Positions 1-27,735 of a stretch of 64,000 nucleotides of DNA are shown in pieces; the first letter of the stretch is position 1, and the number at the start of each line of letters is the position of its first letter. The stretch spans positions 164,588 through 228,587 of the forward strand of contig CALXLF010000002.1 in assembly GCA_944389125.1 (NCBI GenBank), given 5' to 3'. The position numbers and the translations under genes are program-made. Origin of the DNA: an uncultured Clostridia bacterium. GTDB lineage: Bacteria; Bacillota; Clostridia; TANB77; CAG-508. The notes below the pieces were generated by a model. It had not been told where the DNA came from. It worked only from the letters and a program-made list of their open reading frames with translations, and did not search any database.

Positions 1-26
1 GGAAAATATGATAAGGGAGAGTTGAT

Positions 27-446
27 ATGAAAAATAAATTTGATTTTTTTCATTTGTATTATCCGCAAGTAATAGCTGATTCATGTAATTATTTTAAAAG
101 TATTAATGGAATTTATATTGATTTACCAGCTATTATTAAAGAAGAACATAAAAATGTTGAGTATGAAAATGCTGAAAAAATCAAATTTCAAGATTCTATA
201 TATTTAAAAGCAAATAAAAATACCAAAATAAAATTAAATATGCCAATTAAAAATCACGCTTTTTACTATGGTGTAATAAATATTAGTGATAATGATAATT
301 TATCTTTTTTATATTGGTTTAATATAAATAATAAAACTCAGTTTGAAAATATAAAACATTATTTAGAAAATAATTTAAAAATTGGTTTGATGAAAGGAAG
401 CAATGAAAAGTATTTAATTGCTGTTTGGTCAGGATATGAGAAGTGA
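27..446 (+). CDS. hypothetical protein (139 aa), no recognisable motif
   Basis: ORF with an upstream GGGAGAG RBS. The product is Asn/Lys-rich and overlaps the next ORF in an ATGA-type junction. Confidence 0.45.
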   Translation: MKNKFDFFHLYYPQVIADSCNYFKSINGIYIDLPAIIKEEHKNVEYENAEKIKFQDSIYLKANKNTKIKLNMPIKNHAFYYGVINISDNDNLSFLYWFNINNKTQFENIKHYLENNLKIGLMKGSNEKYLIAVWSGYEK

Positions 447-1593
447 AATAGAAAAATACATTTATCCAAATTATTTTAGTAAAGGATATCCACTTTTAAC
501 ACCAGAGATTAATGATATATGGGCTGATATATTAAATATTTTAATAGAATGTTTTGAAAAAGAGTTTAAAGATATAAAAATAGTAAATACATTACCATTA
601 ACTTATGATATAAATTTCTTATCTAAATTTTATGGAAAATATTTCGATAAAATTGAAGAAATGATTCCAAGATATAAAAAAGATGATAATAAAGAAAAAG
701 CTTTACTTACAGATAAATTACCTGTAGTAGTAAATTATATTAATAATAAAAAAATAGATAATTTGATATCAACATATACAGTTGTTAGACCAAGAAGTTT
801 TGGACTTAGAACATATCTTTACGAGGAATTTATTAGATATTTTCAGTTAATTATTTCTACAGATAAACTTGAAAAAAAAGAGTTTACACAAAAAATAAAA
901 AGTTCATTAGAAGAATTTTTTAGAAAAATAAATTTAGAAGTGATTTTAGCTGGACGTATTTCAGAATCTTATTATAGTAATAAAAGTACATTTTTTTCTA
1001 TATGGTTGGATGATAGAATTACTGATATTTTACAATGTGGACTATTGAGGGAAAATGTTGTAAATTCAATATTTACATCAAGTAAAAAGACAAGATTTGT
1101 AATGGATATTGGAGGCTCTCAACGTTTAATTACAGCATGGATTTATGCTAATTCTGATAAATTAGGTTTAAAATTTCCAAAGGCTATGAGACAATATGAT
1201 ATATTACTTGAAGTTAAGAATTCAACAGAGTTTAGTAAAAAAATTATAAATTATTGTAAAGAAAATAAAATTAGGGTTTTATTTGATCAATCTTTAGGAA
1301 AGAAAAAAATAAATAAAATAAGAAATTTAGGGTATAGCCAAAGTGTTGATATTCTATTGATTCAAAGAAATAGAGATGGTAAAGAATTTTATGATGTTTT
1401 TTATCGAAATGGAGACAAAAGACTAATTAGTAATATAAATGAACTTAAAGACTGTTATAATAATTATGAAGATATATTTTTGATTAATCAGAAAAAAATA
1501 ATAAAAAAACATATTAATAATCAAAAAATACATCCATCTACATATTTTGGTGATTTACCAGTTATGGATGATAATTTGTTTAAGGAGAATTAA
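436..1593 (+). CDS. hypothetical protein (~386 aa); ATG at 436 is the likely start, TTG at 418 is possible
   Basis: Long ORF ending 1 nt before gap. It has no similarity I can recognise and is not CggR-like despite its position upstream of gap. Confidence 0.5.
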   Translation: MRSEIEKYIYPNYFSKGYPLLTPEINDIWADILNILIECFEKEFKDIKIVNTLPLTYDINFLSKFYGKYFDKIEEMIPRYKKDDNKEKALLTDKLPVVVNYINNKKIDNLISTYTVVRPRSFGLRTYLYEEFIRYFQLIISTDKLEKKEFTQKIKSSLEEFFRKINLEVILAGRISESYYSNKSTFFSIWLDDRITDILQCGLLRENVVNSIFTSSKKTRFVMDIGGSQRLITAWIYANSDKLGLKFPKAMRQYDILLEVKNSTEFSKKIINYCKENKIRVLFDQSLGKKKINKIRNLGYSQSVDILLIQRNRDGKEFYDVFYRNGDKRLISNINELKDCYNNYEDIFLINQKKIIKKHINNQKIHPSTYFGDLPVMDDNLFKEN

Positions 1594-2622
1594 ATGAATA
1601 AAAAAATTAAAATCGGAATTAATGGATTTGGGAGAATTGGTAGTCTTATTTTCAGAAGGGCAGTAAAAGATGAAAATGTAGAAGTCGTCGGAATAAATGA
1701 TCCTAATATACCAATTGATTATATGTGCCATTTAATGAAATATGATTCAGCACATGGTATTTTTAATGAAAATATAAAACTTTTAGATGGAAAAATACAA
1801 GTAAATGACAGTGAAATTAAAATTTTTTCAGAAAATAATCCTAAAGATATTGATTGGAAAAGTTGTGGAGCTGAATATATAGCTGAAGCTTCTGGAAAAT
1901 TTGATAATATAGAAGGCTCATCATTACATTTTAATGGTGGAGCAAAAAAAGTAGTTATAACTGCTCCATCAAAAGATGCTCCTATGTTTGTTATGGGAGT
2001 TAACCAAAAAGAATATAAGAAAGGAACTAAAATAATTTCTAATTCATCATGTATTACCAATTGTTTAGCTCCTCTTGCAAAAGTAATAAATGATAATTTT
2101 GGGATAGAAGAGGCAATTATGACATCAGTTCATTCTGCAACTGGTGTTCAAAATGTAGTTGATGGAATTATGTATGAAGATTGGAGAGCTGGAAGAGCTG
2201 TTTTAAATAATATTATACAAACTCCAACTTATTCAGCAGAAACAGTTGGTAGGGTGATTCCAGAACTAGATGGAAAACTTCTGGGAACGGAATTTAGAGT
2301 ACCCACATTAGATGTATCTGCAATAGATGTCACAATTAAATTAAAAAAGGAAACAACTTATGAAGATATAAAAAAAGCAATGAAAGATGCTTCTGATAGT
2401 AGTGAGTTTAAAGACATTATTGAATATACAGAAGAGAAAGTTGTTTCATCAGATTTTGTTGGTGATATACATACATCAATATTTGATGCCAGTGCCGGAA
2501 TAATGATGTCACCTAAATTTGTAAAGCTTATCGCTTGGTATGATAATGAATGGAGCTATGCTTGCAAAGTAATTGATTTAATGAAATATGTTTATAAAGT
2601 TGATGAAGGAGGAAATAAATAA
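1594..2622 (+). CDS. gap: glyceraldehyde-3-phosphate dehydrogenase
   Basis: N-terminal INGFGRIGS Rossmann motif, the active-site [10 protein letters not shown] (variant of SSCTTNC) and the C-terminal WYDNEW motif. Length is 342 aa. Confidence 0.95.
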
Positions 2623-5066
2623 TGAGATATTCTAAAGAGGTTGATAGAAAATGGCAAAAAAGATGGAAAGAATCAGGATTATATAAATTTGATATTAGTA
2701 ATCTTGATAAAAAGTTTTATTCATTGGAAATGTTTTCATATCCATCAGGAGCAAGATTACATTTAGGACATTGGTTTAATTTTGCACCATCAGATTCATT
2801 TGCTAGATTTAAAAGTATGCAAGGATATAATGTTTTTCATCCTATGGGATTTGATGCTTTTGGATTACCTGCTGAGAATTATGCTATAAAAACAGGTATT
2901 CATCCAGAAGAATCAACTTTAAAAAATATAGAAACAATGAAAAGACAATTAGAAGAAATGGGAGCTAATTACGATTGGAATTATTCTGTTGAAACTTGTA
3001 TGCCAGATTATTATAAATGGACTCAATGGATATTCTTAAAACTATTTGAAAAAGGCCTTGCTTATAAAAAAGAAGCACCTGTTAATTGGTGCAAAAGTTG
3101 TAATACAGTATTAGCAAATGAACAAGTTGTAAATGGAGAATGTGAAAGATGTGGCACTATAGTAGAAAGAAGGAAAATGTCTCAATGGTTTTTTAAAATT
3201 ACTGATTATGCAGAAGAGTTATTAGAAGGATTAAAAGATTTAGATTGGCCTGAATCAACCAAAAAGGTTCAAGCAAATTGGATAGGTCGTTCTGAAGGAG
3301 CAGAAGTAAAATTTAAGATTGAAGGAAGTAAAGATGAATATTTAACAGCTTTTACAACAAGAGTTGATACATTAAATGGAGTAACATATGTTGTTATAGC
3401 TCCTGAAAGTGATATAACTTTAAAATTAACGAAACCTGAATATCTTGATGCTGTAAATAAGTACAGAGAACAAACTGCAAAAGCTTCTGATATAGAAAGA
3501 ATGTCAACCGAAAGAGAAAAAACTGGAGTATTTACAGGTTCTTATGTAATTAATCCAATTAATGGAGAAAGAGTTCCTCTTTGGGTATCTGATTATGTAA
3601 TTGAAGGTTATGGAACAGGTGTAGTTATGGCTGTTCCAGCACATGATGAAAGAGATTATGAATTTGCTAAAAAATATAATTTGAAAATAAAAGAAGTTAT
3701 AAAACCTGTAGATGGAAATGCGGAATTACCATATACTGACTATGGAATATTAATTAATAGTGGAGAATTTAATGGATTAACAAGTGCTGAAGCTAAAAAG
3801 AAAATTGTTGAAAAATTGAGTAAAACAAATGAAGGTAAACAAACAGTAAATTATAGATTAAAAGATTGGTTAGTATCAAGACAAAGATATTGGGGAGCAC
3901 CAATTCCTATTATATATTGTCCTGATTGTGGAATTGTACCTGTACCAGAAAAAGATTTGCCAGTATTATTACCTCATGATGTTGAATTTAGACCTGATGG
4001 TGAATCACCATTAAGAAAATCAAAAGAGTTTATGCATTGTAAATGTCCAAAATGTAACAAAGATGCTATGAGAGAATCTGATACTTTAGATACTTTTGTA
4101 GATTCAAGTTTCTACTTTTTAAGATATCCTGATGCTAGAAATTCTGAAAAAATATGGGATAAAGAGATAGTTGATAAGATTATGCCAGTTGATGTTTATG
4201 TTGGAGGTAAGGAACATGCTACAATGCATCTTATATATGCTAGATTTATGACAAAAGCATTAAGAGATATGGGATATGTAGACTGTGATGAACCTTTTAA
4301 GAAAATGGTTCATCAAGGAATGATTTTAGGTCCAGATGGTAATAAAATGAGTAAATCAAAAGGAAATACAGTTGCTCCTGATCCTTATGTTGACAAATAT
4401 GGTTCAGATACATTTAGAATGTATATTATGTTTGGATTTTCTTTTACAGAGGGTGGTCCTTGGAAAGATGAAGGAATACAAGCTATTGTTAAATATTTAA
4501 CTAGAGTAGAAAATTTAGCAGATAGAATACTTAATAATAAATATAAAACTAAAAATACGATAGATGATGAAGAAAAAGAATTAATTTATGTAAAAAATAG
4601 AACTATTAAAGCAATGGAAGCAGATATAGATAGATTTCAATTTAATACAGCAATAGCACGTTCTATGGAGTTTATAAATGAAATGGTAAAATATGAACAA
4701 TTACCAATAGTAAATGAGAAGCTACTTAGAGAATCATTTGAAACATATATCACTCTTATTTCTCCATTAGCTCCACATTTTTCTGAAGAAATTTGGGAAC
4801 AATTTGGACATACTGAATCTGTTCACAAAGAATTATGGCCAAAATATGATGAAAAAGAAATCGCTAAATATCAAATTAATTTGCCAATTCAAATTAATGG
4901 AAAACTTAAAACTGTAATAAAAACTAATAGAGAAGCAACAAAAGAGGATGTTAAAGAAGCAATAAAAGATGTTCCAACAATAGTACAAGCTTTAAAGAAT
5001 TTTGAAATAAAAGATGAAATATTTGTACCTCAAAAAATATTTAATATTGTTGGAAAAAAGAAATAA
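2622..5066 (+). CDS. leuS: leucyl-tRNA synthetase (native-composition copy)
   Basis: 814 aa with the HLGHWFNF class-I HIGH-type motif, a KMSKSKGN motif and CP1 editing-domain length. The start overlaps the gap stop (TAATGA). Confidence 0.95.
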
Positions 5067-5081
5067 ATATTTTAATTAAAT

Positions 5082-5120
5082 AAAAAAAGGATGGCACCTG
5101 CTTATAGCAGGTGCCATTTA
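5082..5120. terminator. bidirectional rho-independent terminator between the convergent leuS copies
   Basis: Perfect 11-bp stem ATGGCACCTGC / GCAGGTGCCAT with a 5-nt loop, flanked by an A-run upstream that acts as the T-run for the minus-strand gene. Confidence 0.75.
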
Positions 5121-5127
5121 GTGTGCA

Positions 5128-7545
5128 TCATCTTACAACAAAGTTGATGATACGTCGAGGAACGTAAACCACTCTTTGAATGGTTTTACCGTTCAACTTG
5201 TGTGTAACATACTCTTGCGCAATGGCTTCAGCTTCAGACTGGGTGGCATTGGGATCAATTTCTATTTTGGCAATAGTTTTTCCGTTCATTTGAACAGGAA
5301 TCTCGATTTTGTCAGATGCCATTTTGTCTTTATCAGCTTTAGGCCAATGACCGGTTATAAAGATACTCTGACTATGTCCAAGCTTTTGCCAGTATTCTTC
5401 CGCTGTATGTGGAGCACTTGGTGCCATAAGACAAGCCAGTATTTCCATGACAGATGTGAGAACTTTAGAATTTCTTCCTGTGTCCAAATATCTGCCAATT
5501 TGGTTGGAGAGTTCCATCATCTTAGCAATCGCAGTATTGAATTGGAAGACCTCAAAATCACGAGTGATTTTATCAATCGCAATGTTCATAAATTTTTCGA
5601 GATCTGCTTCTTCTTTACCATACAAGTCTGAAAACTCTTTGATGGCAAAGTACCTGTTATAGTACCGATCAATTCGTTTAAAGTACTTGTTGATTGCTTC
5701 GAGCCCACTATCTGACCATGGGCCACCTTCCGTGTATTTGAATCCGAACATCAGGTATGTGCGAAATACATCGCTACCATACTTTTCTACATATTCATCT
5801 GGAGAAACTGTATTACCTTTAGATTTACTCATCTTCTGGCCGTCAGCTCCGAGAATCATACCCTGATGTATAAGCCTTTGAAATGGCTCATTAATGTCCA
5901 AATATCCTGCGTCGCGAAGAGCTTTGGTTACAAATCTGGAATAGATCAGGTGCATACAGCTGTGTTCAGCACCACCAACGTACATATCCACAGGGAGCAT
6001 TTTATTGACAATATCCTTGTCAAATGCTTTTTTGGAATTCCGCGCATCGGGATAACGAAGCTGATACCAAGAGGAACACATAAATGTATCCATAGTATCT
6101 ACTTCTCGACGTGCTTTTTTACCACAGCATGGACATGTTGTTTCTACAAATTCGCGACATTTCGCAAGAGGAGACTCTCCAGTTGGTGAAAACTCAACAT
6201 CATAGGGGAGTTCAACCGGCAAATCCTTTTCGGGGACTGGTACGATTCCACAATTATCACAATAGATAATTGGAATTGGAGCACCCCAGTATCTCTGACG
6301 TGAGATAAGCCAATCTCTCAGCCTGTAAGATATTGCTTTTCCACCGCAGTTTTTCTGCTCCAAGAAAGTGTTGATGGTTTCCTTGGCTTGGGTTGCTGTC
6401 ATGCCATTGAGGAAATCAGAATTAATCATCATTCCATCTTTGCCAATATAGACCTTTTCAGAATCATTTCCATTTGAAATAACAGTGATGATTTCGAGGT
6501 CATGTTTTTTAGCAAATTCGTAGTCTTTTTCGTCATGTGCTGGAACAGCCATAGCAATTCCAGTCCCATAACTTTCAATGATGTAATCAGCTACCCAAAT
6601 GGGAATTTTCTTCCCAGTTACAGGATTGATAGCAAATGCACCAGTGAAGACACCAGTTTTTTCGTGCTTTGTTGACTGCCTTTCAATTTCAGTCAGATAT
6701 TCAGCTTGTTTTACATAGACATTAACATCCTCCTTAAACTCGTCAGTAACAATGTCTTCCAAAGCATCATGCTCAGGAGCAATAAGAAGAGCAGTACTGC
6801 CAAATACCATTTCTGGTTTGTCAGTGAAGACTTCGAGTTCTTTACCATTTTCAGTTTTGAAAATGATTTTTGACCCCTCAGTTTTACCAATCCATGCCCT
6901 TTGCATAGCTTTTGTCTTTTCTGGCCAATCAAGATGGTTCAGGCCTTCGATGAGTTCTTCTGCATAATCCGTGATTTTCAGAAACCACTGAGACATTTTT
7001 TTTGTGTGTACTTCAGTTCCACACCGTTCGCAGCAGCCATCTTTGACCTGTTCTCTAGCCAGAACGGTTTTGCATGATGGACACCAGTTTGCTGGAGCAG
7101 ACTTTTTATATGCAAGCCCCATTTTGTAGAGCTGCAGAAATACCCATTGTGTCCATTTGTAGTATTCTGGATCACAAGTGATGATTTCTTTACTCCAATC
7201 AAACATTCCGCCCATGTCATCAAGCTGGCGTTTCATGACAGCAATATTGTGATAAGTGCTGTTTTTTGGATGTACTCCTGTCTTGATAGCATAGTTTTCT
7301 GCCGGCAGTCCAAACGCGTCAAATCCCATAGGCTGAAATACAGCATATCCTTGAAGACGTTTGAATCTAGCCCAGCTATCAACTAGGCCAAAGTTGAACC
7401 AGTGCCCCAAATGAAGCTTGGCTCCTGACGGATACGAAAACATTTCCATGACATAGAGTTTCCGCTTGATGTTGCTTTCATGGAAAGTAGCAATGCCAAG
7501 CTCTTTCCATTTAGCTTGCCAAAGCCTTTCTTTTTCCAAGTTCAT
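5128..7545 (-). CDS. leuS: leucyl-tRNA synthetase, second copy with markedly higher G+C (probable horizontal acquisition)
   Basis: 805 aa and full length, with HLGHWFNF and KMSKSKGN motifs. By eye it is about two-thirds identical to the first copy over the N-terminal 230 aa. GC is visibly about 40-45% versus under 30% for the neighbours, and the many spurious antisense ORFs are typical of GC-richer DNA. The start has an AAAGGAGAG RBS. Confidence 0.9.
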   Translation of the reverse strand: MNLEKERLWQAKWKELGIATFHESNIKRKLYVMEMFSYPSGAKLHLGHWFNFGLVDSWARFKRLQGYAVFQPMGFDAFGLPAENYAIKTGVHPKNSTYHNIAVMKRQLDDMGGMFDWSKEIITCDPEYYKWTQWVFLQLYKMGLAYKKSAPANWCPSCKTVLAREQVKDGCCERCGTEVHTKKMSQWFLKITDYAEELIEGLNHLDWPEKTKAMQRAWIGKTEGSKIIFKTENGKELEVFTDKPEMVFGSTALLIAPEHDALEDIVTDEFKEDVNVYVKQAEYLTEIERQSTKHEKTGVFTGAFAINPVTGKKIPIWVADYIIESYGTGIAMAVPAHDEKDYEFAKKHDLEIITVISNGNDSEKVYIGKDGMMINSDFLNGMTATQAKETINTFLEQKNCGGKAISYRLRDWLISRQRYWGAPIPIIYCDNCGIVPVPEKDLPVELPYDVEFSPTGESPLAKCREFVETTCPCCGKKARREVDTMDTFMCSSWYQLRYPDARNSKKAFDKDIVNKMLPVDMYVGGAEHSCMHLIYSRFVTKALRDAGYLDINEPFQRLIHQGMILGADGQKMSKSKGNTVSPDEYVEKYGSDVFRTYLMFGFKYTEGGPWSDSGLEAINKYFKRIDRYYNRYFAIKEFSDLYGKEEADLEKFMNIAIDKITRDFEVFQFNTAIAKMMELSNQIGRYLDTGRNSKVLTSVMEILACLMAPSAPHTAEEYWQKLGHSQSIFITGHWPKADKDKMASDKIEIPVQMNGKTIAKIEIDPNATQSEAEAIAQEYVTHKLNGKTIQRVVYVPRRIINFVVR

Positions 7546-7745
7546 ATGGACTCTCCTTTCTGTAGTCTGTAAACTGTGATGTGATAGAGTATGTTAAAAT
7601 AAACAAGTTAGTTTTCTCTCCTTCCTTAAGTATTTGTCTCTACACTAAGAGACTTTTCAACATTGTTTATTTAACAATCATATTATAGCATATGAAAAGT
7701 TATTACGTCAACTTGATACAACTGCATTTTTGTGATTTTTCATTG

Positions 7746-7785
7746 ACAATTACGCTATTTTGTGATATGTATAATAAAACTAATA
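7746..7785 (+). promoter_or_regulatory. putative sigma-A promoter for the asnA-like gene
   Basis: TTGACA, a 17-nt spacer, then TATGTATAAT (TG-extended -10). Confidence 0.3.
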
Positions 7786-7902
7786 TAGCGAACTATTATA
7801 TATATAATATAATAGGATACAAATTAATTACATAGCTTCGATAAACTGCACTATATAGGTTTTTATAGTGCTTTTATTCATTTTGATAAGGAGGGATTGA
7901 TG

Positions 7903-8916
7903 ATGGAAAGAATTAAACCAACAGGTTCATGGAAAAAATTAGATGATCATTTTTTAAGAGCAATTAGTGATCCATGGTATAAGTGTTTGGTAAACTTAGA
8001 AAATTTGATTTCAGAGTATACATTTCTTTTTTATATGAAAAAAGGAATTAAAACTATGCATCTACCTATAACAACAGGTTCAATATCTAGCCCTATGGGA
8101 CTTGGAAGTGATTCATTACCTGTAAAAATAAATTTGTCAGGGTGTGATACATATTTAGCAGATTCTATGCAATTTGCTTTAGAATATGGATGTAGATTTT
8201 TTGAAAATGGAACTTGGTATATAATGCCATCTTTTAGAGGAGAGGGAGAAGATGCAAGACATTTAAGTCAATTTTATCATAGTGAAGCTGAGATTCCTGG
8301 AACACTTGATGATGTTATAAAATTAATTGAAGAGTATTTAAAATTTTTGTGTGAAAATATTTTAAAAGAATATAAAGATGAGATTATTGAAATAGCCGGA
8401 ACAACTGAGCATATTGAGAAATTAATAAATTTAAAAGAAATCCCTAGAATTACATTTGAAGAAGCTGTTAAAATGTTAAATGATGACCCAAAATATATTG
8501 AACATAGTGAATATGGATTTAGAAATATTACAAGAATTGGTGAGACAGTATTATTGAAAAAATTTGGAGGATTTGTATGGCTTACTAATTTTGATAAAAT
8601 GGCAGTTCCATTTTATCAAGCACAGACTGAGGATAAAAAATATGCTAAAAATGCAGATTTACTTATGGGTATTGGAGAAACTGTTGGATGTGGAGAACGT
8701 CATGAAACAGGAAATGAAGTAAAAAAAGCTTTAAAAGATCATAATGTAGATGAAAATGAATATAAATGGTATATTCAAATGAAAGACAAATTTCCATTAA
8801 AGACTTCAGGATTTGGAATGGGAATAGAAAGATTTATTTTATGGTTGACAAAACAAAATGATATAAGAGATTGCCAATTATTGCCTAGATTTTTAGGAAA
8901 AAATGTTATACCATAA
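7903..8916 (+). CDS. AsnA-like amino acid-AMP ligase / asparaginyl-tRNA synthetase paralog lacking an anticodon-binding domain (archaeal-type asparagine synthetase family)
   Basis: Class II aaRS catalytic-core motifs are present: FRGEGEDARHLSQFYHSEAE (motif 2-like), GIGETVGCGERHE, and the C-terminal SGFGMGIERFILWLTKQNDIRDCQLLPRFLG (motif 3: GxGxGxER ... PR). There is no N-terminal OB or anticodon domain. TTG at 7897 or ATG at 7900/7903 are possible starts after an AAGGAGGG RBS. Confidence 0.7.
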   Translation: MERIKPTGSWKKLDDHFLRAISDPWYKCLVNLENLISEYTFLFYMKKGIKTMHLPITTGSISSPMGLGSDSLPVKINLSGCDTYLADSMQFALEYGCRFFENGTWYIMPSFRGEGEDARHLSQFYHSEAEIPGTLDDVIKLIEEYLKFLCENILKEYKDEIIEIAGTTEHIEKLINLKEIPRITFEEAVKMLNDDPKYIEHSEYGFRNITRIGETVLLKKFGGFVWLTNFDKMAVPFYQAQTEDKKYAKNADLLMGIGETVGCGERHETGNEVKKALKDHNVDENEYKWYIQMKDKFPLKTSGFGMGIERFILWLTKQNDIRDCQLLPRFLGKNVIP

Positions 8917-8949
8917 CATATACAAATTAATTTTATAAGGAAGGTTTTA

Positions 8950-9717
8950 ATGAATAAGAACAATATTCCAATTTTAGAATTTGATGAAGATAAAAATGCA
9001 ATTATTAGTCCAGATGATTTTAATAAGGATATCCCTAGGATTCAAGAAAAATGTATATTATGTTTTTTTAATGAAATTATAGATGAACTTGAAAGGCAAG
9101 GAAAAATTAGACATATAACAGAATTGCATTCTCCTTTAGGAAGTCATAAAATTTATGAGATGACATATAATGATGTATCAATAAATGTATTCAACCCAGG
9201 TCTTGGTGGACCAATGGCAGGAGGTTTTGTTGATGAATTAATTGGACTTGGAGTTAAAAATTTTATGGCTTGTGGAGGAGCTGGAGTTTTAATAGATGAA
9301 ATAGAGATGGGAACATTAATCATACCAACATCAGCTGTAAGAGATGAGGGTTTGTCTTATCATTATTTTCCAGCAAATCAAGATATATTTTTGAAAAATG
9401 AAGTTTATAATAAGATCGAATCTGTTTTAAATGAAAATGAAATAAAATTTTTAAAAGGAAAGACTTGGACTACAGATGCAATTTATAGAGAGACTAAAAC
9501 TAAAATTCAAAATAGAAAAAAACAAGGATGTATATGTGTTGAAATGGAGTTTGCCAGTATGCTTTCAGTAGCATTATTTAGAAATGTAAATTTTGGTCAG
9601 TTATTATATGGTGGAGATAGTGTTGATGGAGGTATTTGGAAATATAGAGATTGGTTGAAAAATGAAAGTGTTCAAATGAAAATGTTTTGGCTTTGTGCCG
9701 ATATTTTAACAAAATAA
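8950..9717 (+). CDS. PNP/UDP-1 family nucleoside phosphorylase-like protein
   Basis: Motifs NPGLGGPMAGG, MACGGAGVL, PTSAVRDEGLSYHY and VEMEFASM resemble the phosphate/ribose-binding and MEAA motifs of DeoD/Udp-type phosphorylases. Length is 255 aa. Confidence 0.65.
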   Translation: MNKNNIPILEFDEDKNAIISPDDFNKDIPRIQEKCILCFFNEIIDELERQGKIRHITELHSPLGSHKIYEMTYNDVSINVFNPGLGGPMAGGFVDELIGLGVKNFMACGGAGVLIDEIEMGTLIIPTSAVRDEGLSYHYFPANQDIFLKNEVYNKIESVLNENEIKFLKGKTWTTDAIYRETKTKIQNRKKQGCICVEMEFASMLSVALFRNVNFGQLLYGGDSVDGGIWKYRDWLKNESVQMKMFWLCADILTK

Positions 9718-9726
9718 AGTAATAAA

Positions 9727-9758
9727 ATAGAGCATTAAAATTGCTCTATTTTTGTTTG
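9727..9758 (+). terminator. rho-independent terminator
   Basis: ATAGAGC ... GCTCTAT hairpin followed by TTTTTGTTT. Confidence 0.7.
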
Positions 9759-9842
9759 AATTTTATCTTGACTTTTGGCTTAAAACATGTGATAATTTTT
9801 TCGTAGATTGATTTTTATATGTTTAATTAGGAGAAAAGTGCT

Positions 9843-20902: not shown

Positions 20903-21022
20903 TAAATTTTAAAAAAAGCTATTCTTAAATTGTAATTTTTGCATATAAGTATAGCTTTTTGCTTTGTATAAAAATGTAAAAATAGGTTGAAAAAAAAGAG
21001 TAATAATGATATACTCTTGAGC

Positions 21023-22099
21023 ATGATAGAAGAAAAGAGAAAAAAAGTGTTACATATTGTAGAGGCTTTTGCTGGAGGAATTTTTTCAATTCTTGTAGAT
21101 CTAGTAAATTCTACATGTGATGAATTTGATATTGTTATTGCATATTCTAAAAGAGTACAAACACCAGAAAATTTCAAAAGCTATTTTGCCCCAAATGTTA
21201 AGTTTATAGAAGTCAAAAATTTTACTAGAAGTATTAGCTTTAAAAAGGACATAAAAGCTTTTTTTGAGATAAGAAAAATTATAAAAGAAGAAAAACCAGA
21301 TGTAATACATCTTCACTCATCTAAAGCTGGATTTTTGGGTAGATTTGCTGCAAATGGCAAAAAAATAAGAATGCTATATAATCCACATGGATTTTCTTTT
21401 TTAATGCAAGATAGTTCTAAATTAAAAAGAAAAATTTATTGGATAATAGAAAAAATTGGAGCAATGAGAAAATGTACTATAGTTGGATGTTCTCAAGGCG
21501 AATATGAAGAAGCTTTAAAATTAAGTAAAAATTCAATATGTATTAATAATGGGTTAAATGTGGAAAAATTACAAAATGAAACAAAAGATTTTAAAAGAAA
21601 AGATATTGATTTCAATAATTTAAAAATTTGTACAAGCGGAAGAATTGGATATCAAAAAAATCCTAAGCTTTTCAATAAAATTGCAGAAAATTTTCCAGAA
21701 CTTAAATTTACATGGATAGGTGATGGAGATTTAAGAGAAGAACTAACTAGTAAAAATATAAATATTACAGGTTGGAAAACAAGAAGTGAAGTTTTAGAAC
21801 TTGTAAATGAAAACGATATTTTTGTTTTAACATCTCTTTGGGAAGGATTACCAGTTTCTTTATTAGAAGCAATGTATTTAGGTAAAATTTGTATAGTTAC
21901 TGATTGCATCGGAAATAGAGATGTAATTAAAGATGGAGAAAATGGTTTTATAATAAATGAAGAAAATTATAAAAATGTAATTCAAAATTTAAATAATACA
22001 GTTTGCCAAAAGGTTTCTAAAAAAGCAAAACAAGATATACTAGATAAATTTAATGTTAAAAAAATGGCAGAAGAATATAGGAGAGAATACTATGGCTAA
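21023..22099 (+). CDS. glycosyltransferase family 4
   Basis: C-terminal EGLPVSLLEAMYLGKICIVTDCIGNRDVIKDGENGFII (GT4 EX7E-type motif). The start is likely ATG 21023; the ORF is open from TTG 20987. Confidence 0.75.
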   Translation: MIEEKRKKVLHIVEAFAGGIFSILVDLVNSTCDEFDIVIAYSKRVQTPENFKSYFAPNVKFIEVKNFTRSISFKKDIKAFFEIRKIIKEEKPDVIHLHSSKAGFLGRFAANGKKIRMLYNPHGFSFLMQDSSKLKRKIYWIIEKIGAMRKCTIVGCSQGEYEEALKLSKNSICINNGLNVEKLQNETKDFKRKDIDFNNLKICTSGRIGYQKNPKLFNKIAENFPELKFTWIGDGDLREELTSKNINITGWKTRSEVLELVNENDIFVLTSLWEGLPVSLLEAMYLGKICIVTDCIGNRDVIKDGENGFIINEENYKNVIQNLNNTVCQKVSKKAKQDILDKFNVKKMAEEYRREYYG

Positions 22100-24467
22100 A
22101 AAAGTTGGAATTGTTTCATGCTATTTTAAAAATAATTATGGAAGTATGCTTCAAGCATATGCAACTAAAAAAATATTAGATAATAACAATATTCCTAATG
22201 AAACAATAAATGTTGATAATAATATAGATTTTAAAAAAGGAAAAAGAAATTATTATATTTCTCAAATATTTAATTTTAATTTTATAAAATCTAAATTTGG
22301 AATGATAAAACTAAAATTAGATAAAAAAATTGTAAAAGATTTAGGAAAAAATATAAATATAAGAAATAATAAATATAAAGAATTTAGAAGAGAATTTAAT
22401 TTATCTAAAAGTGTAAATACATACTCAGAACTTAATAAAATGGCAAAAGTAAAATATTCAGATGTTTTATTAGGTTCTGACCAGTTATGGTTACCTGTAA
22501 ATGTAGTAGCTGATTATTATACATTAAATTGGGTACCAGACAATATTAATAAAATTTCTTATGCTACTTCATTTGGGGTATCAAGTATTCCAGACAAATA
22601 TTATGAAAAATATAAACTTTTTTTAAGAAGATTTGATCATTTATCTATAAGAGAAGATAGTGGAATAAAACTCGCTAAAGAAATAGCAGGTATTAATGGA
22701 AAATTAGTATGTGATCCAACTTTATTATTAACAAAAGAAGAATGGGAAAATGAAGCATCAAAAGAAAGAAAATATAATGAAAAATACATTCTTTGCTATT
22801 TTTTAGGAAGCAATATAGAACATAGAAAATTTGCTGAAAAACTTAGAGATAAAACAGGATATAAAATTGTTTCATTAAATCACGCAGATGAATATGTTAA
22901 ATATTCAGATGAATTTTGTGATTATGCGCCATATGATATAGGCCCAAGAGAGTGGATAAGTTTATTAAAAAATGCGGAATATGTTTTAACTGATTCATTT
23001 CATGGAACTGTTTTTTCACTGATATTTAATAAACAATTCTTTTGTTTTAGAAGGTATAGTGCAAATGCAACAGGTTCAACAAACTCTAGATTAGATTCAT
23101 TATTAAAAGTAGCTGAAGTAAGTAATGAAAGAATACTTTCAGGAACAGAAAATATTGATGATGTTTTAAAATATAAAATAGATTTTGAAAAAGTTAATAA
23201 TAATATAGAAAAATTCAGGGATGATTCTAAAAAATGGTTATTAAAAGCTATTTCTTATAAGCCAGATAAAGAAAAATGTATTAATATAACAGATAAAGAT
23301 TTATGTACTGGATGTACAGCATGTAAAAATATTTGTCCAAAAGATGCTATAGAAATGGTTAAGGATGAAGAAGGATTCTTATATCCTAAAATAGATCCGA
23401 GAAAATGCATTGAATGCGGAAAGTGTAAAAAAGTTTGTCCAGTGCTTAATAAAAAGAAAAGAGAAGATTTTAAACAAAAAGGATATATTTTTCAATATAA
23501 AGATAATGATATTAGAAAACAGAGTACTTCTGGAGGAGCTTTTACAGCAATAGCTGATTATGTAATAGAAAAAGGTGGAGTTGTTTTTGGAGCTTGTTTT
23601 GATGAAAATTTTAAGGTAATACATCAAAAAGCAGAAACTAAAGAAGAATTAGAAAAGTTTAGAAATAGTAAATATGTACAAAGTGATTTGAAAAATACTT
23701 TTAAAGAAGCAAAAAAATTATTAGATAAAGGAACTTTAGTATGCTATAGTGGAACAGCTTGTCAAATTGAAGGTTTAATAGCATATTTAGGAAAAGTCTA
23801 TGATAATTTAATAACAGTTGATGTTATTTGTAGAGCTGTACCATCACCTTTATTATGGGAAAAATATATAGAATATAAAGATAAACAAAAAAAAGCTAAA
23901 AAGATTTATTTTAGGGAAAAATTTTATGGATATAAATATTCAAATTTAGCAATGCATGATGAGTCAACAGTTTTTTATCATAATGGAGTTGATACAGATC
24001 CATATTTAAGAGCATTTTTCTCAAATATAGCATGCAGACCATCTTGTTATAGTTGTAATTTTAAAGAACAACTTCATAAAGCTGATTTTACAATTTGGGA
24101 TTGTTTCGATGTAAGTAAATATGATGAGTCTTTTGATGATGATTTAGGAACAACAAGAATATTATTAAATAGTGATAAAGCAATTAAAGTATTTGATGAA
24201 ATAAAAGAAAAACATAATACAAAAGAAGTAGATGTAGATTTTCTAGTATCTAATTTTCATCAAATGTTTAATTCAATAAAATATAATTCAAAAAGAAAAG
24301 AATTTTTTGATGATTTAAATAATGAAGAATTTACTTCAGTAATAAGCAAATATTTTCCAAATACATTAAAATGTAGATTAGAAAAGTATGGAAGAATAAC
24401 ATTAATAAAATTAGGTTTATATAAGCCTATAATTAAGTTAGGAAAAAAGATAAGAAAACGTATTTAA
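22092..24467 (+). CDS. fusion protein: polysaccharide pyruvyl transferase domain + 2x[4Fe-4S] ferredoxin + FrhB-like (coenzyme F420 hydrogenase beta-subunit family) domain
   Basis: The N-terminal MAKKVGIVSCYFKNNYGSMLQAYA is typical of PvT/CsaB-family starts. Two CxxCxxCxxxCP clusters (CTGCTACKNICP, CIECGKCKKVCP) sit mid-protein, followed by an FrhB-like C-terminal region (STSGGAFTAIADYV...). ATG 22092 overlaps the stop of the upstream GT4. Confidence 0.7.
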   Translation: MAKKVGIVSCYFKNNYGSMLQAYATKKILDNNNIPNETINVDNNIDFKKGKRNYYISQIFNFNFIKSKFGMIKLKLDKKIVKDLGKNINIRNNKYKEFRREFNLSKSVNTYSELNKMAKVKYSDVLLGSDQLWLPVNVVADYYTLNWVPDNINKISYATSFGVSSIPDKYYEKYKLFLRRFDHLSIREDSGIKLAKEIAGINGKLVCDPTLLLTKEEWENEASKERKYNEKYILCYFLGSNIEHRKFAEKLRDKTGYKIVSLNHADEYVKYSDEFCDYAPYDIGPREWISLLKNAEYVLTDSFHGTVFSLIFNKQFFCFRRYSANATGSTNSRLDSLLKVAEVSNERILSGTENIDDVLKYKIDFEKVNNNIEKFRDDSKKWLLKAISYKPDKEKCINITDKDLCTGCTACKNICPKDAIEMVKDEEGFLYPKIDPRKCIECGKCKKVCPVLNKKKREDFKQKGYIFQYKDNDIRKQSTSGGAFTAIADYVIEKGGVVFGACFDENFKVIHQKAETKEELEKFRNSKYVQSDLKNTFKEAKKLLDKGTLVCYSGTACQIEGLIAYLGKVYDNLITVDVICRAVPSPLLWEKYIEYKDKQKKAKKIYFREKFYGYKYSNLAMHDESTVFYHNGVDTDPYLRAFFSNIACRPSCYSCNFKEQLHKADFTIWDCFDVSKYDESFDDDLGTTRILLNSDKAIKVFDEIKEKHNTKEVDVDFLVSNFHQMFNSIKYNSKRKEFFDDLNNEEFTSVISKYFPNTLKCRLEKYGRITLIKLGLYKPIIKLGKKIRKRI

Positions 24468-24499
24468 CAAAAGTTAAAGCTTAGGAAGGAATAGCAAAG

Positions 24500-25609
24500 A
24501 TGAAAATAGCTAAAAGAGATATTACAAAAATAGAAATAGACAAAAAAATTATATATTTCTTATTTCCAATTTTAATTATAATTGCAAAGATTATTAGATA
24601 TACATTAATGAAAGAGACTTTGGTTGACGAAGGAATAGGACATAGTTTTATTGAATTAATTAATAATAAAATTTATACTAATAGAATTATTGGAGAAATA
24701 CTGACAATAAAATTTTTTGATTTATTAAATATATTTAATCTTTCAACATATATTCAATTTGAAATTTATATTTCGATTATATGGAATTTAATTTTATTTT
24801 TGATTATATTTAAATTAAATAAAAAATTAGATATCATACAAGCTTTATTTGTTGTTTTATCAATAGTTATTTTAAATATATTTGATTTTTGCTTGGCTAA
24901 AGAACCAGTTCAAATGTTATATTTTATTGCTATTTATTTAATTATTTGTAGCAAAAGATTATCTATTATATTTAAAAGTATTTTTACTCTTTTGATATTT
25001 TTATTGATAGCTATTATATTACGAAAATATTATATTTTAATGGCATTTTTCTTTTTAGTTATATATGGTAGTTATTACTTATTAAAAAAATTTGATGTAA
25101 AAAAATATAGAGTTATGATTATTACATTATGTATAATAATTTCTCTTATGTCACTTTTAATTTTAAGTAGTTTATTTATGCCAAGTCAGTATAAAGATTT
25201 AGTAAAAGTTAGAAAAACTATAAGTGATGCTGCTTCTGATATTCACGTTATTAGTGAAACTCAAATTAATCCTAGCATGATGATATTATTTGTAGATTAT
25301 ATAATTGTATTTATAAGGTTAATATTTCCTATAGAGTTATTACCATTAGGAATAAAATATATACCATATATTGTATATCAATTACTAATTACATATATAA
25401 TAATTAAATCAATAAGAACTTTATATCAAAATAATGAAAGTAGAAATATATCTATTTTTGCATATATAGCATTTGTTTTAGGGTCTGCTATGTTTGAACC
25501 AGATTTTGGTTCATGGATAAGGCATGAAGCTGTATTTTGTCCAATAATATTTATAGCATGTAATGCAAAAACTATAAAAGAAAAAGTAAAAAGTGAGGAA
25601 GAAAAATAG
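24500..25609 (+). CDS. polytopic membrane protein, probable oligosaccharide repeat-unit polymerase (Wzy/EpsG-like)
   Basis: About 10 predicted TM helices and a Phe/Ile-rich composition, in a polysaccharide-locus context. Confidence 0.5.
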   Translation: MKIAKRDITKIEIDKKIIYFLFPILIIIAKIIRYTLMKETLVDEGIGHSFIELINNKIYTNRIIGEILTIKFFDLLNIFNLSTYIQFEIYISIIWNLILFLIIFKLNKKLDIIQALFVVLSIVILNIFDFCLAKEPVQMLYFIAIYLIICSKRLSIIFKSIFTLLIFLLIAIILRKYYILMAFFFLVIYGSYYLLKKFDVKKYRVMIITLCIIISLMSLLILSSLFMPSQYKDLVKVRKTISDAASDIHVISETQINPSMMILFVDYIIVFIRLIFPIELLPLGIKYIPYIVYQLLITYIIIKSIRTLYQNNESRNISIFAYIAFVLGSAMFEPDFGSWIRHEAVFCPIIFIACNAKTIKEKVKSEEEK

Positions 25610-25613
25610 TAAA

Positions 25614-26744
25614 ATGACAAAAGTTTTATTTTTTGTTGATAGAATGTTAAAAGGTGGAATTCAATCTTTAGTAATTGAAATAGTTAGAAATATAAATAAA
25701 GAAAAAGTACATATTGATTTTTTATTATTAGATGATGGAAATGAATATGATCTTGAAAATACATTAAAAGATTTGGGGTGCGAAGTTTACAAATTAAATG
25801 GTATTTGGGTTAATACTCCTTTAGATTTTGTTAAATATATAAAAGCTTTAGATAATTTTTTTAAAGAACATAATGACTATGATGTTATACATATGCATTC
25901 TTCTAGCAAAAATTATATGGTATTAAAAAAAGCAAAAAAATATGGAATACCTGTTAGAATTGCTCATTCACATAACATAGATTTTCAAACCAAAAATCCA
26001 ATAAAGAAATTTTTGGGAAATATTTTTAAAAGTTTTCTTAAGAAGTATGCTACTGATTATTTTGCTTGTTCTAAAATTGCAGGAGAATGGCTTTTTGGAG
26101 AAAAAATTGTAAATTCAGAAAAATTTTATGTAATACATAATGCAATAGACTATGATAAATTTAAATTTAATGAAGAAAAAAGAAATAAAATTAGAAAAGA
26201 ACTTGATGTAAAAGATGATGAATTAGTTATAGGACATGTTGGAAGATTTACAAATCAAAAAAATCATGATTTTTTAATAGATATTTTTTATGAAATGTAT
26301 AAAATTAACCAAAATATAAGGTTACTATTAATAGGCAAGGGAGAGAATGAAGAATTAATAAAAATAAAGGTTAAAAAATTGAATTTAGAAAATCTGGTAA
26401 TGTTTCTAGGATTTAAAAAAGATGTTTATAATTATTATCAAGCTATGGATGTATTTTTGCTTCCATCTAAATATGAAGGATTACCAGTTACTTTAGTTGA
26501 GGCTCAAGCAAATGGATTGCCAATTTTTACTTCTAAGAAAGTTGTTTCAGATGAAGTAAAACTATGTGATAATCTATATTTTATTGAATTAGATAAAAAA
26601 CCTGAAGAATGGGCAAAAGAAATTTTAAGTAAAGATTTAACTAGAATTAATACATATCAAAATTTTAAAGATAATAGATATTTTATTAACGATACAGTTG
26701 ATTTTTTAGAAGAATTCTATGAAAAAAATACTCAAAGGAAATAA
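25614..26744 (+). CDS. glycosyltransferase family 4
   Basis: EGLPVTLVEAQANGLPIFTS motif, with an ATG after a GAGGAAGAAAAA RBS. Confidence 0.75.
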   Translation: MTKVLFFVDRMLKGGIQSLVIEIVRNINKEKVHIDFLLLDDGNEYDLENTLKDLGCEVYKLNGIWVNTPLDFVKYIKALDNFFKEHNDYDVIHMHSSSKNYMVLKKAKKYGIPVRIAHSHNIDFQTKNPIKKFLGNIFKSFLKKYATDYFACSKIAGEWLFGEKIVNSEKFYVIHNAIDYDKFKFNEEKRNKIRKELDVKDDELVIGHVGRFTNQKNHDFLIDIFYEMYKINQNIRLLLIGKGENEELIKIKVKKLNLENLVMFLGFKKDVYNYYQAMDVFLLPSKYEGLPVTLVEAQANGLPIFTSKKVVSDEVKLCDNLYFIELDKKPEEWAKEILSKDLTRINTYQNFKDNRYFINDTVDFLEEFYEKNTQRK

Positions 26745-26763
26745 TTATAAAAAGGAGATAATA

Positions 26764-27735
26764 ATGAATAATTATACGGTTTTTGATACAGCATGTGGTA
26801 GTTTAAATGTTGGAGACCAAATTATTATGGACTCATTTGAAAAAGAAATGAAATTTATATTAGATACAGGTTTTGTTGGTAGATTTCCTACACATACACC
26901 AATATTTCATTTTTATCAGGCAAATAGATTTAATCATACTTTTAGATATATTAATTCATCAAAGTATAAGTTTGTTGCTGGTACTAATATATTATGTAAA
27001 AATTTATTGCAACCTTGGCCTAATTGGAATATGAATATTTTTAATTGTTCGCCATATAAAGATTGTATTCTTGTTGGATGTGGAAGCGGTAAAGGCGATA
27101 AGATGAATTTATATACTAGATTAGTATATGATAAAATTTTAAATAAACAGTTTTTACATTCAACTAGAGATGAAAAAACTAAGAATGAATTAGAAAAACT
27201 TGGATTACATGCTATAAATACTGGATGTGTTACTACATGGGGGCTTACAGATGAAGCTTGTAGTAAAATTGAAACTAATAAGTCTGATTCAGTTATATTT
27301 ACTTTAACAGATTATAAAAAAAATGAAGAAATAGATAAAAAATTTATTGATATTCTAAAAAGAAATTATAATAAAGTTTATTTTTGGATACAAGGTTCTT
27401 CTGATTTAAAATATTTTAATACATTAGAAAATACAAAAGATATAGAAATTGTTCCTCCATCTTTACATGCTTTTCAAAATATTTTAATAAATAAAAAAGT
27501 GGATTATATTGGAACTAGATTACACGCTGGTATATTTGCTATGAAAAATTATATTAGGAGTATAATTATAGCTATAGATAATAGAGCTATAGATATGAGT
27601 AAAGATTACAATTTAAATTGTATTGTTAGAGAAAATTTGATAAATGAATTGGAAGATAAAATAAATAGTAAATTTAAGACTGAAATAAATATTAATATGA
27701 AAAATATAAACGAATGGAAAAGTCAATTTAAGTAA
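26764..27735 (+). CDS. polysaccharide pyruvyl transferase family protein
   Basis: N-terminal FDTACGSLNVGDQIIMDS is typical of WcaK/CsaB-type pyruvyl transferases. AGGAGA RBS. Confidence 0.65.
   Translation: MNNYTVFDTACGSLNVGDQIIMDSFEKEMKFILDTGFVGRFPTHTPIFHFYQANRFNHTFRYINSSKYKFVAGTNILCKNLLQPWPNWNMNIFNCSPYKDCILVGCGSGKGDKMNLYTRLVYDKILNKQFLHSTRDEKTKNELEKLGLHAINTGCVTTWGLTDEACSKIETNKSDSVIFTLTDYKKNEEIDKKFIDILKRNYNKVYFWIQGSSDLKYFNTLENTKDIEIVPPSLHAFQNILINKKVDYIGTRLHAGIFAMKNYIRSIIIAIDNRAIDMSKDYNLNCIVRENLINELEDKINSKFKTEININMKNINEWKSQFK

Follow-up and report, generated by a model that had tools for sequence, protein, structure and literature searches.

Two leucyl-tRNA synthetases at an agrocin 84-type gene set in gut Clostridia: a foreign second copy as candidate self-immunity enzyme

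Why should a bacterium keep two full-length genes for leucyl-tRNA synthetase (LeuRS) next to each other, one of them with the base composition of a different organism? This question is raised by a 64,000-nucleotide (nt) stretch of DNA from an uncultured Clostridia bacterium (GenBank assembly GCA_944389125.1, contig CALXLF010000002.1, positions 164,588 to 228,587), hereafter the window. Here, the gene for LeuRS1 (2622..5066, plus strand, 814 amino acids, aa) runs head-on toward that for LeuRS2 (5128..7545, minus strand, 805 aa). A sequence-only reading of the window had taken LeuRS2 for a horizontally acquired gene and a candidate resistance or self-immunity enzyme. The analysis described below supports the foreign origin. 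With moderate confidence, it also points to LeuRS2 being the imported, maintained and inhibitor-insensitive LeuRS of a producer with agn-like (agrocin 84-type) genes, that is, an analogue of AgnB2 from plasmid pAgK84, with LeuRS1 as the native copy. Other contigs and loci used for context comparison carry L labels and proteins from searches P labels; several of our inferences draw on a handful of short metagenomic contigs.

Both genes encode complete enzymes, as had been proposed from their common signature motifs (HLGHWFNF and KMSKSKGN). The two proteins are 55% identical over their full length, possess the complete set of LeuRS Pfam domains, editing domain included, and far exceed the cutoff of the NCBIfam model leuS_bact (TIGR00396; 1008.7 bits for LeuRS1 and 954.6 bits for LeuRS2, cutoff 548.4). 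Their matches to the NCBIfam models of MupA/MupB reflect generic class I similarity only. The predicted tail-to-tail layout also holds: a spacer of 61 nt contains a bidirectional intrinsic terminator common to both genes (5091..5117), a perfect stem of 12 base pairs (bp) closed by a loop of 3 nt and flanked on opposite sides by an A-run and a T-run. The start of LeuRS1 overlaps the stop codon of a gene for a GAPDH-family dehydrogenase, making LeuRS1 the last gene of an operon to which we return below. LeuRS2 has a predicted sigma-70-type promoter of its own (7682..7711, minus strand; TTGACG-18 nt-TATAAT with the TG extension of an extended -10 element, 11/12 matches), with the ATG located 137 nt downstream. 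No T-box or other Rfam leader was found, either at the gathering threshold in the whole window or at E<=1 in 7450..7950.

The compositional contrast is pronounced. In 500-nt windows, the GC content is 0.36 to 0.44 over 5001-7750 versus 0.20 to 0.31 on the flanks; in 100-nt windows, it rises at ~5100 and falls at ~7600, close to the gene boundaries, where the sequence-only reading had placed the shift. With the 42 other window open reading frames (ORFs) of at least 150 aa as reference, LeuRS2 has a GC content of 0.409 compared to a mean of 0.262 (standard deviation 0.035, z = 4.2). Its GC content at third codon positions (GC3) is 0.375 compared to 0.111±0.040 (z = 6.5), while LeuRS1 is host-like (GC3 = 0.107). 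Similarly, TTA accounts for none of the 49 leucine codons in LeuRS2 but for 35 of 51 in LeuRS1. The spurious ORFs expected on the opposite strand are present as well (5176..5631 and 5866..6189). LeuRS2 is one of only four of the 43 large window ORFs on the minus strand; in Bacillota, primary essential genes are seldom oriented head-on. We ruled out an assembly artefact or chimera, because the two-LeuRS arrangement recurs in the independent assemblies L001 and L002 and because the 98% protein cluster of LeuRS2 comprises 22 members, the longest of whose contigs measures 318 kb.

Where, then, does LeuRS2 come from? Its homologues fall off in steps, from 98% identity within the same species to 68%, then 63 to 66%, and then <=58%. 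In neighbor-joining trees built on database hits, LeuRS2 belongs to a clade of about 42 sequences (bootstrap 84), which groups with a sister group that includes Ca. Aphodoplasma (bootstrap 93); LeuRS1, in turn, falls with native-type relatives. In the one context of the sister group that was read, the gene is native to a Clostridia genome of 53% GC, located between feoAB and uvrD with a GC3 (0.76) equal to that of its neighbours. Every LeuRS2-clade gene examined in low-GC hosts is GC-enriched relative to its surroundings, with GC3 values of 0.25 in L003, 0.32 in L008, and 0.43 in L004 and L102, versus 0.12 to 0.18 in nearby genes. The scarcity of TTA codons is common to the clade and shows graded amelioration, four other low-GC hosts carrying the signature. 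We had considered TTA avoidance as a special regulatory trait of LeuRS2, an idea that was rejected since the whole clade has it. In addition, nucleotide homology between LeuRS2 and other clade members stops at the borders of the coding sequence. The outlying codon usage, the homology confined to the coding sequence and the sister group in a 53%-GC Clostridia genome support the proposed single-gene acquisition of LeuRS2 from a more GC-rich relative. As for traces of the event, there is neither an integrase nor a transposase around LeuRS2, and the repeats are only short and at chance level. Searching the PLSDB plasmids by tblastn returned no LeuRS2 relative above 47% identity, nor any match to the AgnC1-like protein described below, and in a scan of genome contigs with LeuRS2, the matches listed were only ~50% identical and came from Chloroflexota and others.

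The clade to which LeuRS2 belongs is accessory, mobile and repeatedly paired with a divergent nucleoside phosphorylase, as follows from three kinds of context. In the first (L004-L007), an element inserted between ylmH and eno (5254-13822) encodes an integrase, HTH_17, DUF6076, PNP_UDP_1, a LeuRS of 808 aa, and Mob_Pre. The LeuRS2-clade protein from this context, P0015, belongs to a prevalent Clostridia metagenome-assembled genome and is indexed in 255 collection blocks, whose sample names we take to denote human-gut studies. The second kind (L102-L104 and L008-L009; coordinates 509-16274 in L102 and 4418-12427 in L008) comprises a serine recombinase, DUF6076, PNP_UDP_1, a B12-radical SAM protein, a pyridoxal phosphate (PLP) decarboxylase, a GFO/MocA oxidoreductase, LeuRS, Mob_Pre, and a recombinase. 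In L102, L008 and L103, the B12-radical SAM, PLP decarboxylase, GFO/MocA and LeuRS genes form one GC-enriched four-gene block. It may represent a small pathway in its own right that comes with its own LeuRS. Our literature search found no mention of DUF6076. In the third context, L003, a LeuRS of 805 aa (LeuRS805) sits in tandem behind a native-type LeuRS of 815 aa (LeuRS815) at the end of a biosynthetic-looking cluster. LeuRS805 is the sister of the window LeuRS2 (bootstrap 100) and, at 68% identity, its closest relative outside its own species. The partner native LeuRS proteins of the two loci are 63% identical to each other, a pairing that would fit an old two-copy state common to the window lineage and L003. 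Because both LeuRS2 genes keep a raised GC3 in genomes of 26 to 27% GC, later independent acquisitions, or else a constraint on composition, can be argued for.

We next asked what the genes on either side of LeuRS2 encode. The sequence-only reading had remarked on an AsnA-like enzyme and a phosphorylase-like protein nearby, and had called any link to them speculative. The relevant comparison is pAgK84, which encodes on one strand the AsnA-like AgnA, a methyltransferase, AgnB2 (814 aa), a 139-aa ORF, an origin-spanning 411-aa ORF, a short-chain dehydrogenase (SDR), a second methyltransferase, an amidohydrolase, an S66 peptidase, PhyH, and a radical SAM protein. In this system, AgnA has the adenylation domain of an aminoacyl-tRNA synthetase (aaRS), AgnC1 shows remote similarity to prolyl-tRNA synthetase (ProRS) and is preceded by a conserved 420-bp agnC0, and AgnB2 is the immunity LeuRS (PMC8323819).

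Several of these components have counterparts in the window. The gene at 7897..8916 (plus strand, 339 aa) encodes a truncated, adenylate-forming homologue of asparaginyl-tRNA synthetase (AsnRS)/asparagine synthetase A, with the Pfam tRNA-synt_2 core only. Its identity is 40% to pAgK84 AgnA (BLASTP, E 2e-94) and 58% to the first gene of a related cluster operon in L012. For two NCBIfam AsnA models, this AgnA-like protein and AgnA both fall short of the cutoff, and the best PDB matches of the former are AsnRS, at only ~99 bits. It is followed by a gene for a divergent PNP_UDP_1 nucleoside phosphorylase-like protein (8950..9717, plus strand, 255 aa) that matches no NCBIfam equivalog. Homologues of the latter with 35 to 48% identity belong to the agn-like gene sets of L012 and L095, and others reside beside the LeuRS2-clade genes of L004, L008 and L102; its ratio of nonsynonymous to synonymous substitution rates (dN/dS) is 0.078.

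On the other side, at the left end of the window, 418..1593 (plus strand) encodes a 391-aa AgnC1-like protein without a Pfam match. Its AF2 model (pLDDT 82.9, pTM 0.85) identifies it as a class II aaRS paralogue with a ProRS fold; all of its top 50 PDB matches in Foldseek are ProRS (E about 1e-21, TM about 0.6, 13 to 17% identity), and its invariant VVRPR and DIGGxQR are consistent with motifs 2 and 3 of class II enzymes. Family matches at E<=1e-3 numbered 19 when 1.84 billion representatives were searched exhaustively by HMM; a word search gave 7 clusters, and a scan of metagenome contigs with the family alignment gave one 1.4-kb contig. The relationship to AgnC1 itself is visible in a profile alignment (hhalign, E 1e-3) over the segment DIGGxQRL...GLxFP. 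It is also visible through intermediate sequences: P0316 matches both the window protein (8e-31) and AgnC1 (7e-12), P0321 matches AgnC1 (5e-22), and p386 of L003 is 30% identical to window 418..1593 (E 2e-26) while also matching the origin-spanning ORF of pAgK84 (E 5e-7). Immediately upstream and overlapping, 27..446 (plus strand, 420 bp, 139 aa) encodes an AgnC0-like small protein whose length and position match the 420-bp agnC0 ahead of agnC1 in pAgK84. It has relatives in L012 (p139, 63%), L095 (p140, 58%) and L098 (p129, phmmer 9e-9), and in all contexts the ORF lies directly upstream of, and overlaps, the AgnC1-like gene. Its similarity to the agnC0 ORF of pAgK84 by hhalign was not significant; it has no Pfam match, and a single-sequence AF2 model (pLDDT 42.6) was unusable.

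Between the AgnC1-like gene and LeuRS1 lies the GAPDH-family gene (1594..2622, plus strand; Pfam Gp_dh_N and Gp_dh_C), which is also found inside the clusters of L012 (5819-6847, 80% identity) and L095 (8175-9200, 74%). Its catalytic Cys/His signature is intact, and it lies next to a LeuRS gene in three species. No second GAPDH gene or glycolytic operon was seen among the annotated window ORFs (through 55464). The enzyme could serve housekeeping or, as a dehydrogenase, biosynthesis, or its gene could be a second target copy. Immediately beyond the left edge of the window, as read from L001, are genes for a methyltransferase, which in this lineage links to AgnB1 via L098 only, and for a radical SAM protein. 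LeuRS2 is wedged between two cluster halves, with the end of LeuRS1 on one side and the AgnA-like/phosphorylase pair on the other.

Related loci show the same genes in company. The operon of L012 comprises AsnA-like, S66, methyltransferase, radical SAM, p139, p386, GAPDH, PNP_UDP_1 and LeuRS genes, its LeuRS being 80% identical to LeuRS1, and the cluster of the window species equals this set without S66. In L003, eight genes match pAgK84: the AgnB1-type methyltransferase (42%), S66 (27%), amidohydrolase (27%), SDR (30%), second methyltransferase (28%), radical SAM (25%), AgnC1 (20%), and LeuRS. The GAPDH, methyltransferase, S66 and AgnC1-like proteins of L095 are 60 to 79% identical to their counterparts in L012 and the window. 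An S66 gene is absent in the window species (read in L001) and present in L012, L095 and L003, where the proteins are 27 to 29% identical to the agn S66 (BLASTP, E 1e-33 to 1e-41). By homology, the window neighbours and their relatives constitute an agn-like gene set, which includes the AsnA-like and phosphorylase-like genes together with window 27..1593. What had been a speculative link to these two neighbours is accordingly borne out by conservation in relatives, namely the operon in L012 and the clusters in L003 and L095. The proposed immunity role of LeuRS2, for which AgnB2 had been cited as a precedent, is much strengthened by the homology of the cluster to agn.

How consistently does such a cluster come with a LeuRS? 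An AgnC1-like gene is located within a few kilobases of a LeuRS gene in five of six contexts (window/L001, L012, L003, L095, and L097). The exception is L098, with no LeuRS on its 9.5-kb contig. The LeuRS involved is not always of the same type: the native type is found in the window, L012 and L003, to which a LeuRS2-type gene is added in the window and in L003, while L095 and L097 have a third lineage. These three cluster-linked lineages are 39 to 55% identical to each other. Members of the third (804 aa; L095 5706-8120, L097 1435-3849) are very divergent, ~39% identical to LeuRS1/LeuRS2, and display the unusual motifs YNISG-NLHMGH, TTCIET, GSGLILD and KMSKSS. Independent recruitment of LeuRS from three lineages is what one would predict for an immunity gene that acts as a target copy, and the agn-like clusters of Actinobacteria follow this pattern with MetRS (PMC8323819). 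Because of the linkage in five of six contexts and the three unrelated lineages, LeuRS2 is most likely a self-immunity or resistance LeuRS. The two-copy layout itself is absent in L011 and, at least over the 566 bp between leuS and the contig end, in L012, the closest relative seen. This speaks against the genus-wide arrangement with both copies inherited vertically that the sequence-only reading had named as a refutation. As a side observation, the cluster of L098 (2418-8812) combines an AgnC0/AgnC1-like variant with two dCTP-deaminase-like genes, a different radical SAM gene, two methyltransferase genes and a glycosyltransferase gene, with a transposase gene adjacent, a combination suggestive of a pathway variant based on pyrimidine nucleotides.

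If LeuRS2 is an accessory enzyme, is LeuRS1 the ordinary one, and do both work? Both copies are under purifying selection: comparing the window with L001, dN/dS was 0.067 for LeuRS2 and 0.111 for LeuRS1 at an equal dS of about 0.155, and the dS of LeuRS2 is the same as that of neighbouring genes. Because of the low dN/dS and the equal dS, both enzymes are taken to be functional and to have co-resided since the two strains split. The relatives of LeuRS1 form a smooth series (96, 80, 80, 77, 77, 74, 73, 72, and 68% identity). One of its homologues, P0124, lies away from any such cluster, among housekeeping genes (Sua5, leuS, RluD-L9-DnaB). It branches inside the LeuRS1 group, where P0124 and the L012 LeuRS group without the window LeuRS1 (bootstrap 83). 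LeuRS1 and P0124 have identical motifs, and LeuRS1 shows no rate acceleration. With its host-like codons, this lack of acceleration, the motifs identical to P0124 and the nesting of the latter, LeuRS1 looks like the native copy, in agreement with the sequence-only reading.

The aminoacylation motifs HLGH and KMSKS of LeuRS2 are intact, so there is no inactivating change there, and the HD motif of the editing site is kept. The threonine-rich editing motif, however, reads TDKPEM rather than TTRPDT in all full-length members of the species cluster (T248D, R249K, D251E and T252M in Thermus thermophilus numbering). In LeuRS1, it is TTRVDT. In 201 background sequences, the T, R, D and T of TTRPDT are 100% conserved, and other members of the LeuRS2 clade, including the copies of L003 and of the mobile elements, retain TTRP(D/E)T. 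Because of this replacement, editing by LeuRS2 may be impaired or retargeted, with aminoacylation motifs intact. The clade as a whole is marked by changes at positions that are >93% conserved in the 201 background sequences: N164R (LANEQV to LAREQV), H71Q, A529S beside the catalytic Glu-His, L485M, and V489M.

Together, these data suggest how the locus may operate. The methyltransferase, the radical SAM protein, the AgnC0/AgnC1-like pair, GAPDH, and the AgnA-like and phosphorylase-like proteins together would build a nucleotide or aminoacyl-adenylate mimic, which would block the synthetic site of LeuRS. Cotranscription of LeuRS1 with the biosynthetic genes would raise the dosage of the target, while LeuRS2, made from its own strong promoter, would maintain the supply of charged tRNA-Leu in the presence of the compound. 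Stray toxin may be destroyed by the phosphorylase and, in relatives, by the MccF-type S66 peptidase. The sequence data establish what the genes are, the foreign origin of LeuRS2, purifying selection, the homology of the cluster to agn and its recurrent linkage to LeuRS; from these we infer that a LeuRS inhibitor is produced, that LeuRS2 and not LeuRS1 is insensitive to it, and that the phosphorylase and GAPDH have roles in this scheme. The window species having LeuRS2 in place of the S66 peptidase fits a function of LeuRS2 as a shield, and travelling with a phosphorylase as mobile-element cargo, as the LeuRS2 clade does, is typical of a resistance determinant.

A number of observations weigh against this interpretation. 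LeuRS2 is no closer to AgnB2 (39% identity) than LeuRS1 is (42%), and the determinants of AgnB2 (KQSKS, T581, T42, A102) are absent from LeuRS2 and its clade, which keep KMSKS, YPSG and the pre-HIGH proline. LeuRS2 is therefore not an AgnB2 orthologue, which would still leave room for resistance through other residues. The in-operon position of AgnB2 is held not by LeuRS2 but by LeuRS1, with translational coupling; as the cluster operon ends with LeuRS1, the immune copy might just as well be this one. Moreover, because L012 has the cluster and no LeuRS2 in the 566 bp after leuS, LeuRS2 may not be required by the cluster. As for the pathway, the AgnA-like protein scores 292 bits against an AsnA model with a cutoff of 322 and, because of this proximity, could be a plain asparagine synthetase. 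The radical SAM protein of the window lineage has no detectable homology to that of agn, and no genes for the exporter (AgnG) or the uptake moiety (agnD-F) were recognised in the window, L001 or L012. Operons in small AT-rich genomes can mix unrelated housekeeping genes, the copy number of two is a count at the window locus as opposed to genome-wide, and the product, the inhibitor and the resistance phenotype are all predicted from gene content.

Some of these points converge on a rival explanation, which we consider unlikely but the best of the alternatives: LeuRS1 would be the immunity enzyme of the cluster, and LeuRS2 an independent resistance or back-up enzyme against a LeuRS-directed compound of other gut bacteria, for example, the product of the B12-radical SAM/PLP-decarboxylase/GFO genes. 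Besides the terminal position of LeuRS1 in the operon, native-type LeuRS genes occupy the same place in L012 and L003; the four-gene block on the mobile elements of L102, L008 and L103 suggests another pathway of origin for the clade; and L012 has the cluster without LeuRS2 in the stretch available. On the other hand, LeuRS1 shows neither acceleration nor motif change relative to P0124, which is nested in the same group. In addition, the subclade formed by the window and L003 LeuRS2 proteins is accompanied by an agn-like cluster in each of its two known members.

The absence of a mobility gene or target-site repeat flanking LeuRS2 in the window, along with the lack of known resistance substitutions, would also suit a plain xenologous transfer with no antibiotic link, in which LeuRS2 landed beside leuS by chance and is either redundant or in the course of replacing the other copy; horizontal transfer and transient duplicates of aaRS genes are common. 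Transience, however, is at odds with the strong purifying selection on both copies and their equal dS, which indicate stable coexistence. Nor would this explanation account for the same pairing beside an agn-like cluster in the distant lineage L003, for the clade being repeatedly mobile cargo with a phosphorylase, or for the three LeuRS lineages recruited to AgnC1-like clusters, and we therefore regard it as improbable. That LeuRS2 is a specialized, editing-altered paralogue, supplying Leu-tRNA, a noncognate aminoacyl-tRNA or an adenylate to the pathway or permitting regulated mistranslation, seems very unlikely: while the change from TTRPDT to TDKPEM in every full-length member of the species cluster and the tRNA-dependent steps of other natural-product pathways would speak for it, TDKPEM is limited to the window species with other clade members keeping TTRP(D/E)T, AgnB2 is an immunity enzyme resistant to TM84, and Kim et al. 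reportedly found in 2006 that AgnB2 is dispensable for agrocin production.

Assuming that LeuRS2 is indeed the insensitive enzyme of an agn-like producer, how does it compare with known systems? A self-immunity aaRS beside a cluster for an aaRS inhibitor is an established concept, examples being AgnB2, the albomycin SerRS, MupA, and the actinobacterial MetRS. Like AgnB2 of Rhizobium rhizogenes K84, LeuRS2 is an additional bacterial LeuRS of full length that has no leucine-specific (LS) domain, is foreign to its host and is linked to an AgnA-type enzyme, an AgnC0/AgnC1 pair, SAM methyltransferases, a radical SAM protein and, in relatives, S66. Unlike AgnB2, which resists TM84 (PMC8323819, PMC5059758), it has neither KQSKS nor T42/A102-type changes and is only 39% identical to that enzyme. 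LeuRS2 comes from an uncultured gut bacterium of the Clostridia that has a low GC content and forms spores, the locus looks chromosomal, and two LeuRS genes are adjacent. The window cluster adds GAPDH and a nucleoside phosphorylase to the agn set and goes without SDR, amidohydrolase and PhyH, and no pump or agnD-F genes are seen.

The actinobacterial and Ensifer agn-like clusters (Travin et al. 2021, PMC8323819) similarly have an AgnC1 homologue after agnC0 and a linked aaRS. In the actinobacterial clusters, this is a MetRS, which has been read as an immunity enzyme (PMC8323819), and the Ensifer cluster is a close agn copy; none has been reported from Bacillota, and here the linked enzyme is a LeuRS of three lineages. 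MccF, which cleaves aminoacyl-nucleotide toxins (PMC8323819), offers another parallel, in that an S66 peptidase is encoded in the clusters of L012, L095, L003 and pAgK84. By contrast, the window species has no S66, and MccA/MccB-type peptide-adenylation genes, as in microcin C systems, are missing. Finally, the IleRS proteins MupA and MupB and the indolmycin-resistant TrpRS are likewise divergent, horizontally spread second aaRS, and the LeuRS2 clade resides on integrative mobilizable elements. Here, the differences are the LeuRS class, hosts among gut Clostridia, and a cognate inhibitor that is only postulated.

A search of a literature collection on AgnC1, agnC0, agrocin 84-like clusters and LeuRS self-resistance in gut bacteria returned nothing beyond PMC8323819. 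The agn-like clusters of gut Bacillota, the two-LeuRS architecture, the recruitment of three LeuRS lineages, and the mobile cassette of LeuRS and phosphorylase therefore appear new. The relatives of agn known earlier came from one Ensifer strain and 19 Actinobacteria only; the clusters in low-GC gut anaerobes add Bacillota to the class and bring it into the gut ecosystem. They also provide a concrete starting point for finding a natural LeuRS inhibitor by way of resistance genes. One broader scenario can be offered only tentatively, as we would not yet bet on it: uncultured gut Clostridia might make an agrocin 84-like nucleotide toxin against LeuRS in the course of an arms race within animal and human gut communities, with producers recruiting at least three LeuRS lineages and with the GC-rich LeuRS2 clade and the phosphorylase spreading on integrative mobilizable elements as a resistance cassette. 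If true, it would take agrocin-class systems beyond Proteobacteria and Actinobacteria for the first time and would reveal the first mobile LeuRS resistance determinant found in nature. Drugs such as tavaborole and the clinical benzoxaboroles act on LeuRS, which is thereby a validated target. The mobile LeuRS and phosphorylase cassette in human and other gut metagenomes could be a pre-existing reservoir of resistance to LeuRS-directed drugs.

Two observations concern the right-hand border of the cluster. Directly after it, 9843-11423 (plus strand) encodes an orphan SBP_bac_5 protein of the Opp/Dpp type with an N-terminal membrane anchor, no permease gene beside it, and recA next. AccA, the import receptor for agrocin 84, is of the same structural class, the cluster C periplasmic binding proteins (PMC4526662). 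A role of the window protein in uptake, sensing or sequestration is pure speculation. In the same region, the identity between the window and L001 changes from 95 to 97% through the end of the phosphorylase gene (1-9900) to ~87% from ~10000 onward (10000-18000), with dS values of about 0.15 versus about 0.5. This step at ~10000 suggests a recent exchange or sweep of the whole cluster block between strains.

In the rest of the window, two ORFs at 44432-45322 (plus strand) and 45442-46191 (minus strand), neither with a Pfam match, have the next-highest GC3 (0.28 and 0.24; mean 0.11). With one of them on the rarely used minus strand, the pair may be another small foreign patch. Beyond the two LeuRS genes and the two aaRS-like paralogues, the window, in which aaRS genes abound, has one of the TrpRS/TyrRS family (15686-16696) and those for PheRS alpha and beta (51971-55464), which look like ordinary housekeeping genes. 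A polysaccharide biosynthesis locus (20987-29256, plus strand) encodes glycosyltransferases, a flippase, and two pyruvyl transferases, one of which is fused to an FrhB/ferredoxin-like domain. Downstream of it are the spore germination genes gerA and gerAC as well as spoIVA, which identify the host as a spore former among the Clostridia, and genes for tRNA-Gln and tRNA-His (40339-40504, minus strand). Lastly, obg seems to be split into the overlapping ORFs 17101..17388 and 17303..18379 (plus strand), compared to a single 425-aa protein in L001, and a MiaB-like radical SAM gene (18598-19834, plus strand) is split at 19260/19265; both splits are probably frameshifts or assembly errors in the record.

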